This document shows, piece by piece, positions 15,591-64,000 of a stretch of 64,000 nucleotides of DNA; position 1 is the first letter of the stretch; every line of letters starts with the position of its first letter. This DNA comes from Lama guanicoe. Taxonomy: Eukaryota. Both the position numbers and the translations under genes were made by a program. The stretch covers positions 6,377,902-6,441,901 of the forward strand of contig MU053652.1 of assembly GCA_013239625.1 (NCBI GenBank), written 5' to 3'. The notes under the pieces were generated by a model. The model worked only from the letters and a program-made list of their open reading frames with translations, searched no databases and was not told the origin of the DNA.

Positions 15591-15989
15591 GCCAACAATT
15601 TATTACAATTATATCCCTGTGCTTCTCTTGCACAGGCTCTTTTACATGTTTTTGCTTTGCCCTGGGTTTGGCTCATGTTAAAAATATCCAGAAGTAGAGA
15701 GGCTCTGTCTCTTTCTGTAATTGTTAAATGAAAGTTCAGAGTTTTAATTGGAACAACTCAACTTGTTTCCTCCTGAGCTAGTCTACCGTGTCAAGAAGGG
15801 CTGAGGTCTCAATCCCAGGAGCTCATGATGGATCAATACCTCCACACCGCAGGCTGCGGTGTAATGGGGACAGAGCGTAACGGATGCTGGAGATGCATGC
15901 AGCTATAGTTTTAGAAGAGAACTGATGTCATATAGGAGTGTACTGTCATGCAGCTGCTCTTAAATAAAACAAAAAGACTAAAAACACGA

Positions 15990-29895: not shown

Positions 29896-30752
29896 CTGAC
29901 ATCTCTCCAAGTACCATTTAGTCCCATGGGAGATGGTGAACTATTAGCATAAATATTTAGCCAAAACCAAGGTCAAAGCCAAATATTACCACTGTCGAGT
30001 TAACTTCTAAAATACAAGAATAAATTTTACTTAATTATTTTAACTTTATTACTAACATTCTTAGTTGTACATATTAAATGTTTGAACTTATAGTGCTGGA
30101 ACAGCAAATTCTCAGCATTGTTTTATGCAAGAGCGACCCTTTGTTCCTTATATATCTTGCATTTACAAAACTAAGTAGAGTCTCAGTTTTATCAGATGTT
30201 AGTACAAGCGAAAGATTTTAGTAGGGGTGGAGTTACTTTCATTTTTTTCAACTATTTGTTTTTCCTTCAAACTCTTCGTATTATTATTGTTGTTATTATA
30301 ATGTTTATATTCATAGGTTTGGAGATTTCCTTCCTTATAATTAGTATCTTAAATTGAATTCAACAACTAGATACTAAATGCAGTTTGTAAGGGTTGTGTT
30401 TTATAATATAACATTCAGGTAAACGTGTACTATTTCAACCAACTAGAATTACAATATCTAATACTAGTTTTCCAGAATTGTGCTATTATTTAAATAGATT
30501 TATTGACTTGAGAGGAATATTGTGTTCTTTCTAAGGTTACCTAGTAAAGTGCTTTTGTATTATTCCTATTAGCAATCAATCTATTTACTTAGTTTAGTTA
30601 TTAATAATCATTTTTATTCAAATTAACAGCTTTTATAATTATTAAATTATTAAAACATTTTGTTTTTTCAATATTAAATGCATATAAACTCAATTATCTA
30701 ACATGTTTTAGCATATAAATTACCTAGGAGATTTTTTCACTTTAAGTTAGTT

Positions 30753-30841
30753 CAGAATATTTATATTTTAAAAATAGCATTTATTGGTACATCTGTAAAA
30801 CAGAATATTTATATTTTAAAAATAGCATTTATTGGTACATC
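30753..30841. repeat. Perfect 41-bp direct repeat with a 7-bp spacer
   Basis: cagaatatttatattttaaaaatagcatttattggtacatc at 30753-30793 and 30801-30841; spacer tgtaaaa. Confidence 0.97.
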
Positions 30842-31114
30842 CCATATATCTTTATTTGTATATGTGTGTATGTAGATTTCATACACATGTATTTGATATG
30901 TTCAGATATATTTAAATATTTTATGGAAAACAAAAATAATGTTGCTTTTTATTTAGCTCTAAGAGCCATTTTCCACATCAGTACAGAAAGTTTATCTATA
31001 CTGTTTATAAAATACTTTTTAAAACCTCCTCTGATGGAACATGTAAGTTATTTGCAATTTTTCAAATTTTACCTACACAAACCCTGGTGTCTTGATCGTT
31101 CCTTGCAGTGAACA

Positions 31115-42725: not shown

Positions 42726-45633
42726 CCTAATCCTTCTTATTCTTGAAATGCATGAACACAGTCTTTGTTAATTTGTTGGCCAGTATTTTATCTGTAATGA
42801 AGTTCTTCTAGTCCATTGTCCTGCGCCTCATGCTCTACAATAACCCTCCAGGTTGTAAACCTATATTATTTTTGCCTTAATTCCTCATCACCATCCTAAC
42901 GTCATCTAGGGACATATACCTTACTGCCAGAAAGATAATTCATAATAAATAAGGCCCCTATGGCAACTAGCTTCAGAAGACGACAGTGGAAGGTATCAAC
43001 TTATTAACCATGTCTTCTGTGAACCCTGAGCCAAGTCTTTTTCTATGGCTTGCTATTAGGCCAGAAAATTATTTGTGTGCACAGATTCAGGACAACAGAA
43101 ACTTTGGAACTGAAGGCAACTTATATGCTTGTTCTTTGTTTACACTTTGTGTTGGCTCTGCCTCTTGCCACTGGTATCAGGGATATGCAGGCTGTTTGCA
43201 CATCGAGATCCCTCTAATGGGTTTGAAATTTGTTATTCACAGGACTACTGAAAAAAATTCCTTCTTTGTCATTGTCAGTGTTTCAATTGCTTTCCGTTGA
43301 TTTTTGTTATTTAAAGTCTTTGGTACTTTTCTCTTTAATCTGTGTGATCTTTCATAGCCAGTCAAACATTTCTTCAAGATCCTTCTAAAGGCCACAGAAG
43401 ATCTCATGCAATTTTTCAAAAATTTCCTATGAGGCAGCATGTCTATTTGCCTAAGGTCAAACTCTCCACCATCACAGATCAAAATCAAGGTATTCCCATC
43501 TCAGGGGCTCAGAATGCCCCTATCTCAGATGCCCAAGGATGGCAACATTTTTATTTTTTGAGGTGAAGATAGATCTGACATTCTTTATATTCGAAGTACT
43601 TATGAAGTTTTCCATATATGCTGTAAATATATGATTTATTTATTCTCTTAGTTCTCTTTGCATTTCACAACTACATCACATTCTTTCTAGCTTGTTAAAG
43701 ATTATTTCCTAATAGAACCTGTCCTAACAGCAGGTATAATCTGAGTGTGATTTGAAGAGATTATGGGCAGGATTCCCTATACCTGAATTTCTATCATATC
43801 CTTTCATTCCATCACTCCTATTGCTTTATTCTGATGGTTCCAAAAGCTTTTCAATCTTTTTGAGGCATTTTTATTTAACGCAAACACACTCAAGAGTCTC
43901 GTCTTCTGTTATCACATCATAGTCAACTAAAAGCAGTTTTAGAATAAAATATGAACGACCTAAATTTTATTGATTATAAAAGAGAAGCATAACAAGAGAA
44001 AGGAAATGAGTGCAATAACAGCAGGTTCTGAAGAGCCAAGAATAACTTTCAGCTCCACATTTTTCTGTGAAACCATTTCTGCTTCTATATTTTTTCTGTT
44101 GCTCATGTTTTGTTTTATTTTTGACCTATGCAAAGGACAAATTTCTTGAAGAATTGCTCTGAGTTTCCTCCCTTGGTTTGGATAAGGGTTAGCAAATTTT
44201 ACGGTATTCTTTTTCCTGACTCATATTGTAAGAAAGAAATAATGTAAAATAATGTGATCAGTCACCATCAGATCCATTTAATCACGTCTATTTAATATTT
44301 ACATTCATAGAATTGTGGAAAAGTTGCTATTTAGAGAAATCACCCTTTAGCTATATATACATCTCATTTACTAAAAAAATATTTTTCTTGGATTTTTTTG
44401 AGGAAGAAATCTAAAAATTCTACTTAACTAAGTTTTACTATTTGTGTGTGTGTGGTTCTCCAGTGTTAGGTGCACAGTGCACATATAACAAGAACTTATT
44501 GACCGAAGACATAGTTTTATAAACTCGAAACAGATGGCTACATTTCCACAAATTGCAGGTAAAATGTAAAATGAAATACATTTTCTAAGGTTTGCAGATT
44601 TTGGCAAGTTAAAAAAAAATAATCACTGTTTTATTAAGCAGTGATAACACTGATATGTGTTCCTGACATTCTTCTCAAAATGTTGAAAGAAATAATGTAT
44701 TGAAAAATATTTCCCAAAACTATCCCATATATTCTTTGTAAGAATTATTTTCCTGTACATTTGCTACTATTTTATTGCTTTATTTCCTGGACCTGCTCAC
44801 TAAACTTAGTCAATCCATTCTGATAAATGACCATTCACAGAAGTTGCTACTTTCTATAAATATTATTGTCTGATTCAATTTTGTCACCTTATCCAACTTT
44901 TCAAAACTGTTTTATTTCCTGTCAGATCTTTAGTCATCTTGAATCTTGAGTAAAGTAGAATGTCAAAATACCAAATCATCCCTTCCATCCTTTTTTATTT
45001 TTATTCTCTGGCAGTTTCTGGTAAATGAAGGGACTGGTTTTAGCTATGTTAGGTTTGCTTGCCTTGAAAATGAGAATTCTTGTGCAGATAATGTACTCAT
45101 TTTTCATTGAAATAGCAGCAATTGAAACACTGGACAACACACTGGAAGATAAGATGACAGAAGAATTGTAATATATAGAAATCAATTCATTTTGAAAGCT
45201 AGAACCCACTCACCCAAGCCACAGTCTCACGAAAATAATATTTCAAGCTTTGCTTAATTTCTAGTGCCATGGTTTGTACTTTTGAGCTATTTACATATTA
45301 AGGGTCCATTTTAGATAAAGTATAAGAGCTGAAACTAATGGGCAGGAACCACGTTCTGTATAGCTGATCTGTTTTCTTTTTCCTAGTTGCATCAGACGAG
45401 CTCAGACTTCAGGCAATACTAAACAGTACAACGGAAGTCATATGTATCAAGCACGTAATAGATTCGAATAACACTTGCACATAGTTTAGCTTTAACAAGA
45501 ATCTTGTCTAAGTTCTGAGTCTAATTAGGTGGATTATAAATATATTATATATATTACATGTTTTTATATGTATATCATATACATTTATTACAATAAGATG
45601 TAACTTAACACAAAGAATTAACTAATTGCTAAT

Positions 45634-61030: not shown

Positions 61031-62244
61031 TTGTATTCACTAATCTTCCTATAATCAAAACAAAAATTTTAAATAGCTAACTATCCATTATAATTTGTGT
61101 GTTCTTGGCAAAACTTCTATGGTTACTGTACAATTTTTGAGGGGTAAGAGTGTTTGATTTTGAAAACTGCCTCAGTTCTTCTGAAATACTGGATTTAATA
61201 TGATAATGTAAAGTGAAAATAAAATCATTAGTAAGCATGCTGCCCTGGGAGGAAATGTTCAGTTTAATCAATAGAAGAGAAAACCACACATTAAAGGACA
61301 ACAAAATTAATTCATAGAGTATGATAGTGCCCTGAACCAAGAGAATACGAAATATTAATTATGACTTATTGAAGGAGGTGGTCAAAGAAATTTGGTTAAA
61401 AAATATGTATATATAGCTGAGGAAACTAAAAAGAGGACATGACAATCTTTCTACTAGGTCTAGAAAGTCATGCAAATTGAAATTCAGTATGTTTTATCAT
61501 TCTTTAAGTGAGTTCTAAAATGGCATTTTATATTAGAATATTAGAAATACTAAAATAATATAAATATCTTAAGCAGTTACATTGATGTTTCTTATGAAGA
61601 CACACAAACAATATTACTTGATTCTTTTTATTGCAATGTGCCAGCAATTTCTCTTGCTCTGGTGTGGTGGAGAGGAACACATTACCAGTATAGAACATTG
61701 TCATAAATTATTACCTGAGGATTTTGAGTTGTTGTTTTGGTCTTATATATTATCCATGGTGTATTTGTCACATTTTAATATATCTTAAGATTCAAATTTT
61801 CTATAAATTAAGTCATAATTATATATAAATATATATAATATATAAATATAAATCATTTATGAATGATGTAGATATTTCATTTAATTAATAAAAATAAGTC
61901 CTCATATAGGTAAATTGGGATGCAAACCAGCTCACTGGGTTTTGCTGTTGTTGTTTTGTGTGAAGAAAATCACTGTGTTTTAATTAATTCACAAACAATA
62001 GCATCACAAAAGGTGGTTTAAGGAGGCCACACAAACATCTGTCCAGCTCCAAACTCTACACCAACTCAATGAACTACACAGTAAGAATGCCCTCTTCCAC
62101 TGCAATTCTGAAGCAAAGAAGCTATAACGATAAAGAAGAGGTTTCACTGGTGGTTTTACACTGTAAACTTTTACTATGAATTATATTTTTATGCTAAATT
62201 ATCTTGGTCATGAGAGATGATTTTCCATTTCTTCAATTTGAACT

Positions 62245-62300
62245 TCCTAATTGGCTAACGCGTTGGCAAGTCTGCAGTTTCAGCAGCTCGCCGAAACCCT
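62245..62300 (+). promoter_or_regulatory. Candidate proximal promoter (inverted CCAAT box, small CpG cluster)
   Basis: taATTGGct at 62248-62256 (AGCCAAT on the minus strand), a second TTGGC, and four CpGs in aacgcgt…ctcgccg, about 70-115 bp upstream of the Kozak ATG. Confidence 0.3.
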
Positions 62301-62362
62301 CACAAAGCTTAAAGTCACCCTGGTCCTGGGCACACTCTGAAACTGTTTCATCTTACAGTGCC

Positions 62363-62399
62363 ATGGGCCACTGCTGCTGCTGGCTCCCCAAGGCTCCTG
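62363..62399 (+). CDS. Candidate first coding exon encoding MGHCCCWLPKAP(G…), a putative dual-acylation N-terminus; gene not recognised
   Basis: Kozak GCCATGG; acceptor tgtttcatcttacag 4 nt upstream of the ATG; consensus donor CTG|GTAAGT at 62399/62400 (phase 1); GC-rich patch in AT-rich non-repeat DNA. Confidence 0.45.
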
Positions 62400-63034
62400 G
62401 TAAGTGAGGTCACGTCTTGAGGCTCAACATTACTTCCTTCACTGAAGCCCCAGTGATGGCTCAAATTTCCAATTTTAACTCAATCCTTAATTATCAGTTT
62501 CTCATTTCATTGCCCTTGGTTGAAAGCTCTATTCTCTTCTCTCCACCAATGACTGCCTCATTTTCTTTGAGATTTTCAGTTTGCTGCCTCCGTGAAATAT
62601 ACCTTGGAAACTGCATCCATTCTGAACAATCTTTTGATTTTAAAAGCATTTATTAATCTTTGACTGAAAGCAAGACTAGTTGTCTGGTAATGGAGTATGA
62701 TACTAGTAACATTTCCAGGTTATCTATCGGTTAACAGAAATTTCCCTTTGCGTTCCATAAACATGGGGAAGTTTTCTTAGGTCTTACTTGAAGAGCTAAG
62801 ATTTTTAAGGATTATTTAGAAATATTGACCATAAAAGTAGAAAAATGTTTTTTTTCTGGGTAGTATGGAGTAGAGGTGGACTCTGTGGAAGTGGTTTTAG
62901 TCAAAAGCCACTTACTTTATATCTGGAACTAGTAGAAGAAAACTGCTGCCCAAGAAATTTTGGCTAGTCATGACAATCTATTTTAGGATAAATAATCTGA
63001 TAAACTAAAACAAAGTATGCTTTCTGATGTTTAT

Positions 63035-63175
63035 TGCTGCATTTATTAATTAATTTAATATATTTTCTAAATAGCAACCATGTGCCTGATATTTTTCTAG
63101 GAATAAAAGGTACATCAATAAACATGACAAAAAAAAATCCTTGCTTTTACAGAGCTTGAATCTTCTCCTAGTATA
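63035..63175 (-). mobile_element. L2 3' tail
   Basis: tagcaaccatgtgcctgatatttttctagg…aatccttgcttttacagagcttgaatct. Confidence 0.6.
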
Positions 63176-63189
63176 ATTATGGCTTTTAA

Positions 63190-63440
63190 TTAATATTAAA
63201 AATTATAATGTATTTTGAAATTATTTGGGGTAATGCCCCATCTCTTCTCAAAGAGTTCATCATTTTATCTGACATTATTGAACAAACCCAGCTTTTGCTC
63301 ACTAATATGAAATGCCTCATTTCATATATACAATTTCTATGTGCATACTTGGGTTTATTTAGACTCTGTTGTCTCTTTTCTTTTACTGGTTTATCTTATT
63401 CTTCTCATCCCAGGACCAAATGATCATCACAAAAATGCTA
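63190..63440 (-). mobile_element. Ancient L1M ORF2 fragment
   Basis: gaaatgcctcatttcatatatacaatttctatgtgcatacttgggtttatttagactctg is an L1 antisense motif. Confidence 0.55.
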
Positions 63441-64000
63441 CTGTGGCTCTTGTCCAGAAGCTGTCATTATTATTACTGTTATTATTACATGGCACCAAAT
63501 CTGAAGCAGAATTCAATGAGATCTTTATTTCTCTAAAATTAAATATATTTCAGAAGGCAAAGTAAAAAGCGTGAATTTTACTGAGAATGTGTTTTAGAAT
63601 AAGGGACAATAACAGTGATAATAATAATTAACAATTAACATTGAACATTTCTCCTCTATCAAAATTGCTTTTCTCTAAAATTCTAGTTCTCTCTCCTTTG
63701 GATTCTCAGTCAACTTTCCCCAGCCTCCAGCCTTCGGTCTCTTCAAACATCTTATTCTTGGTCCTTCATTTTGCATGTAAATATATTTAGTTCTGCCCCA
63801 GCTCTTTCAAAGTGAGCAATTAAATTCCTCTAAGAGTGTGAAAGTTCTTTATAGTGAGAATGAATCAGTGCTAAGAAAACAGATGTTCCAATTATTAAAA
63901 CCCACTGATTTAGAAAAGACAGAGTAGGGGGGTGATAGTTAAGTAGTGGAGGGATCATGAATCATAAATAACACAAACATCTTTTTGTTGATCTTAAACG

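Follow-up and report, generated by a model that had tools for sequence, protein, structure and literature searches.

A short candidate exon opening with Met-Gly and three cysteines in a GC/CpG-rich patch of Lama guanicoe DNA

Short exons that provide a protein with a lipid-anchored N-terminus are a well-known kind of element, AKAP18 and the sperm hexokinase HK1S being two examples, and acylated isoforms generated by splicing have been reviewed (PMC11417247). In AKAP18 alpha and beta (AKAP7), a short exon with Gly2 and nearby cysteines is present in some isoforms only; residues 1 to 16 of the alpha form are one exon with the lipid sites, and ten residues suffice for targeting to the plasma membrane (PMC2174236). 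HK1S has a germ-cell-specific N-terminus (MGQICQ), conserved across mammals, that is myristoylated and probably palmitoylated and that has Gln3 but no Ser/Thr6 (PMC4736023). The third related case is STK16 (MPSK1), in which the signal is the constitutive N-terminus of a known kinase, with a myristoylated Gly2, cysteines at positions 6 and 8, and palmitoylation (PMC6480182). The usual signature of N-myristoyltransferase (NMT) substrates is MGxxxS/T, a Gln or Asn at position 3 being needed when Ser/Thr6 is lacking; the same source states that Ser/Thr6 does not suffice for myristoylation and is not critical to it (PMC4736023). Splice-like signals are also described in the pseudoexons of long introns, where consensus-like acceptors and donors occur in AT-rich, exon-free DNA and cryptic splice sites greatly outnumber the real ones (PMC3245539).

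We analyzed a window of 64,000 nt (the whole stretch of DNA considered here) from Lama guanicoe contig MU053652.1, with a GC content of about 34%. It is rich in repeat-like DNA. An earlier, sequence-only reading had proposed, near its 3' end, a 41-nt exon on the plus strand that opens with MG-x-CCC and that might be an alternative first coding exon adding a lipid anchor to a downstream protein. The features described in that proposal are present (Table 1): the coordinates are correct, with the acceptor AG ending at 62358 and the donor GT at 62400, the Kozak ATG opens MGHCCCWLPKAP-G, the donor reads CTG/GTAAGT in phase 1, and the unspliced product from 62363 is indeed a 14-aa peptide. As a coding exon, it would be a candidate only.

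Table 1. Features in and around the candidate exon (positions in the window; splice scores come from approximate matrices)
Feature	Positions	Strand	Details
Upstream in-frame ATG	62210..62212	+	65-codon ORF to 62404
GC/CpG-rich patch	62240..62420		54% GC, 5 CpG, o/e 0.39 vs 0.22 for the window
ETS-like core (CTTCCT on +)	62243..62248	-	Consensus match only
Inverted CCAAT box (ATTGG on +)	62250..62254	-	
Minus-strand exon candidates	62319..62396	-	78 nt (acceptor 7.7, donor 7.0) or 40 nt to 62357 (donor 4.6)
Splice acceptor, middling	62344..62358	+	Rank 372/8279 AG sites, score 6.7
Candidate exon	62359..62399	+	41 nt, 68% GC, no stop in any of the three frames
Kozak GCCATGG	62360..62366	+	ATG at 62363 opens MGHCCCWLPKAP-G
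(CTG)4 run	62371..62382	+	Supplies Cys4-Cys6
Strong donor GTAAGT	62400..62405	+	Phase 1; rank 13/6404 GT sites, score 10.8
Very strong acceptor	63414..63565	+	Score 13.0; phase-1 frame open 49 codons

Some parts of the description fared less well. The donor is strong, whereas the acceptor, presented as good, is of middling rank. An ATG-free stretch of about 140 nt had been claimed upstream of the start, and indeed no ATG is found in the 145 nt before 62363 (the ATGs within 62000-62420 are at 62069, 62087, 62176, 62191, 62210, 62217, and 62363). The frame is open upstream as claimed, over 69 codons (62198-62404), but it contains the in-frame ATG at 62210, which had gone unmentioned and which, if used, would bury Gly2. 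The inverted CCAAT box and the upstream CpGs are also there, the former at 62250 and the latter at 62259, 62261, 62289, and 62292, with one more at 62413, downstream.

As a dual-acylation anchor, the peptide resembles its precedents in part. Met-Gly stands at the start of the frame in a good initiation context and the cysteines lie within the first ten residues, so that the Gly2 and nearby Cys of the SH4-type signature stand, whereas the published rules for myristoylation are missed, His3 and Cys6 providing neither MGxxxS/T nor Asn/Gln at position 3. The precedent of AKAP18, invoked by the sequence-only reading, holds for the architecture of its exon, the one considered here being a candidate. 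The AKAP18 string MGQLCC was that reading's own and was not found in the literature searched; with Gln3, this string would conform to the fallback rule, whereas the candidate, with His3, does not, and HK1S differs from the candidate in the same residue. STK16 has been reported as myristoylated with a Cys at position 6 (PMC6480182); its relationship to the candidate is one of motif only. Judged from the residues, myristoylation of the candidate peptide is doubtful. In STK16, residue 3 is His as well. The MG-x-CCC appearance arises because the (CTG)4 run reads Cys-Cys-Cys in the frame of the ATG at 62363; apart from the (TGC)3 core of this run, the window contains no (TGC)3 or (GCA)3. A small CTG repeat may have produced the signal as a by-product. 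The string MGHCCC was not found in the literature searched, a scope that leaves subscription journals outside.

All or part of 62150-62600 was found in 20 of the 24 sequencing-run rows, and half or more in 18, where 0.88-1.00 of the sampled words were present and nine of which are possible sources of the sequence itself; since these runs carry five different organism labels, the bases are not an assembly error. Two RNA runs of a single study contained 0.10 of the 40 sampled words, which is no evidence of expression; a 41-nt exon is below the sensitivity of the index. Screening the window at the Pfam cut-off revealed no host-gene exon, neither among 18 longer frames nor, with the curated cut-off, among 50 frames bounded by candidate acceptors and donors, and no Rfam match was found in 1-62000 or 62130-64000. 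The candidate exon sits in intergenic DNA or in a very large intron, and the window provides only 1.6 kb of DNA on its 3' side. A protein-like open frame of 87 codons at 43240-43500 on the minus strand was considered as a host-gene exon and dropped, as it had no homologue in Pfam or in the protein search; it is perhaps a piece of an old LINE or of a pseudogene. No second copy of the candidate-exon region was found within the window, which contains elsewhere a stretch of about 45 nt repeated almost exactly in direct orientation (30746-30872). Strong acceptor-donor pairs, at relaxed thresholds, are skewed toward the plus strand (19 of 23), as are donors with a score of 9 or more (25 on the plus strand and 14 on the minus strand), a skew that may reflect the orientation of the repeats.

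The explanation that we favor, although we hold it at slightly less than even chances, is that 62240-62405 is an ordinary promoter and first-exon unit of the non-CpG-island type on the plus strand, with the body of a gene or lncRNA beyond the end of the window. NF-Y, a CCAAT factor, would bind together with an ETS factor at 62243-62254, transcription would start around 62270-62350, and recognition of the strong donor at 62400 by U1 snRNP would define the exon. The acceptor AG ending at 62358 would be incidental, or used by a form with a short 5'UTR cassette, and the Kozak ATG would at most open an upstream ORF or else be spliced out of frame. The motifs, the composition, and the strengths of the sites can be read directly, and from them we infer the transcription, the splicing, and the non-coding role. 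The donor belongs to the top 0.2% of the GT sites of the window and lies inside one of its six GC/CpG patches, preceded by the leader without ATG and, 105-115 nt upstream of the candidate exon, by the CCAAT and ETS-like motifs. The coincidence of the Cys triplet with the CTG run favors an incidental peptide, as does the failure of His3/Cys6 to follow either of the two rules (PMC4736023), and no protein match was found for the upstream-extended frame among proteins of 71-2000 aa, for the downstream frame among proteins of 27-88 aa, to the MG start in PDB, or in Pfam. By our rough estimate, acylation first exons are outnumbered about a thousandfold by real non-coding ones, and an incidental motif in one of the latter is therefore no less likely than a selected motif, a weighing that rests on guessed genome-wide numbers of both kinds of exon. 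Several observations stand against a promoter and first exon: the matches to CCAAT/ATTGG and to the ETS-like core are short and common (four and three, respectively, within 61400-63000), five other patches of the window have a similar composition, eight other acceptor-donor pairs are as strong, and none of 1200 simulated windows combined an optimal Kozak ATG and Gly2 with three Cys followed by a strong donor, something that a real acylation exon would explain directly. A non-coding first exon would be an ordinary element, and so would a cryptic exon.

A few other features of these patches can be described. Directly 3' of the donor, at 62407-62415, an AGGTCA half-site overlaps a CRE-like GTCACGT. 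An open frame of 29 codons with coding-like codon use extends over 62251-62337 on the plus strand, in another frame than the MG peptide, and gave no match in Pfam or PDB. The patch at 15761-15960, a possible regulatory element, contains, at 15864, a Kozak-MG start that has one Cys but no donor.

The second explanation, which we consider quite possible, though well short of probable, is a cryptic exon, i.e., a chance GC-rich patch with a latent donor in intergenic or deep-intronic DNA that has never been used nor been under selection. The abundance of cryptic splice sites in the pseudoexon literature cited above favors it, and in the window nine acceptor-donor pairs are equally good on both scores (seven distinct donors, that of 62400 included). 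The Pfam search of the window frames found no host gene, and there is a mirror acceptor on the minus strand. Within the window there are 40 Kozak-MG starts; four, that of the candidate exon among them, have a GTRAG donor, and the candidate's is the only one in which residues 3-8 include at least two Cys. In an order-5 Markov simulation of 1200 windows, with thresholds chosen after the feature had been seen, two or more Cys occurred with a donor score of at least 7 in 53 cases and of at least 10 in 6 cases, while three Cys with a donor score of at least 10 never occurred. The resulting rates (0.005-0.044 per window) correspond to about 150-1400 chance cases in a genome of some 2,000 million letters (about 31,000 windows). 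The combination is thus unusual for one window, yet some 150 cases per genome would be produced by chance at the rate of 0.005. Against a cryptic exon are the absence of the strictest combination from all of the simulated windows and its coincidence with a patch that retains CpGs and with an ATG-free leader; compared with the pseudoexons of long introns, the candidate adds the Kozak ATG, the GC/CpG patch, and that leader.

The original proposal comes third: an alternative or main first coding exon, the anchor of which would be joined to the rest of the protein via the phase-1 donor. A methionine aminopeptidase (MetAP) would remove Met1, NMT would myristoylate Gly2, and a zDHHC enzyme would palmitoylate Cys4-6, targeting the product to the Golgi or the plasma membrane; the partner would be a coding exon beyond the window or the frame at 63414. 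We consider it somewhat unlikely from the sequence, and the evidence that can be tested leans mildly against it. The optimal Kozak context, Gly2, the three cysteines, and the strong donor form the rarest class of the simulation and lie in a GC/CpG patch with no ATG upstream, there are precedents in AKAP18 alpha (PMC2174236), HK1S (PMC4736023), and STK16 (PMC6480182), and the in-phase acceptor at 63414 is very strong. However, the peptide has neither Ser/Thr6 nor Asn/Gln3, its Cys triplet would have arisen from one microsatellite event, a first exon does not require the acceptor that lies 4 nt before its ATG, and the Pfam screens of the window brought up no host-gene exon. Should the element be real and coding, it would supply a young microprotein or a membrane-targeted isoform missing from annotation, and a trinucleotide repeat would have given rise to a lipid anchor.

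Protein searches bear on this proposal to a limited extent. Of the proteins of 71-2000 aa, only two had enough words in common with the 40-aa upstream-extended frame to become candidates, and neither scored; at most two cluster representatives could carry the N-terminus, a small number if the exon were annotated throughout the mammals. A profile search with 30 aa gave two matches, both artefacts in which tandem-repeat proteins scored through summed repeats. In a control, a perfect match of 13 residues reached only 17-23 bits (E 5-1700), so these searches are blind to the 13-residue N-terminus alone, which leaves room for an acylation exon. On this evidence, an annotated extended form is excluded among proteins of 71-2000 aa, a statement that applies to cluster representatives (isoforms inside clusters and proteins over 2000 aa fall outside it) and does not cover an isoform beginning at 62363. 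The PDB search returned 14 weak matches, none of them to the MG start, no Pfam match at the cut-off was found for the frames at the candidate exon, and the top value in the ESM Atlas for the 65-aa ORF was 0.78. A Pfam match of 62198-62404 to A2M (E 0.11, below the cut-off) was discarded as chance, three such weak matches having appeared among 18 frames. A metagenome scan with a 20-mer found six loci with little match beyond the pattern and microbial-like CpG content, which are unrelated chance matches, and BLASTN against phage and plasmid records gave only chance pieces of 22-45 nt (12 and 14 records, respectively).

The phase-1 frame behind the acceptor at 63414 fits the frame of the candidate exon, and the joined product would be a microprotein of 62 aa. 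It has no annotated protein as counterpart: no protein of 27-88 aa shared three words with its 50 aa, and the ESM Atlas gave no usable match. Three of the 24 equally strong acceptors have a phase-1 frame as long, by chance. The poly-Leu of this frame stems from a TTA-rich run, and the region 63200-63470 is possibly an old antisense fragment of L1 ORF2, an origin for which no copy within the window and no L1 match in PDB were found. A more specific version of the acylation exon would be an unannotated first exon with a myristoylated, triply palmitoylated anchor and cysteines from the CTG microsatellite, joined to a partner beyond the window or to 63414; in the latter case, the product would be a de novo poly-Leu membrane microprotein, possibly camelid-specific and with an old L1 fragment as its source. 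This version we regard as improbable.

It is more improbable still that the real exon lies on the minus strand, between 62396 and either 62319 (78 nt, frame-preserving) or 62357, the plus-strand features being its mirror image. Its acceptor is better than that of the plus strand (7.7 vs 6.7) and the donor with a score of 7.0 leaves the 78-nt exon open, but both minus-strand donors (7.0 and 4.6) are far weaker than the plus-strand donor (10.8), and the frame found no match in Pfam or PDB.

Hardly credible is a decayed immunoglobulin V segment (VH framework 1, CDR1, and framework 2) of which the exon would be a remnant. Antibody heavy chains or nanobodies account for 12 of the 14 weak PDB matches (E 0.064-3.6), at the end of the frame, and an alignment to framework 2 of a mammalian VH cDNA has 19 identical bases out of 25. 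However, antibodies are over-represented in PDB, the VH alignment came no higher than 6th, 45th, and 48th among the 636 tiles of the window with three schemes of scoring, and it is reached by 16, 63, and 62 of 1000 shuffles (1.6-6.3%). There is no V-set match in Pfam, no heptamer was found downstream within 63000, and the only octamer, at 61470, is about 800 nt away. We rejected this origin, the similarity not being above the background of the window and the hypothesis having been formed after the fact. A beta-defensin relic was also rejected: its second-exon cysteine pattern was absent among the matches listed, and a signal-peptide reading would need a changed start and two frameshifts. The VH cDNA used in the comparison comes from a Streptomyces genome assembly (contig NZ_JAPHNL010000189.1, 819-1543), where a rearranged mammalian immunoglobulin heavy-chain cDNA with leader, VH, CDR3, J, and the beginning of the constant region is a contamination.
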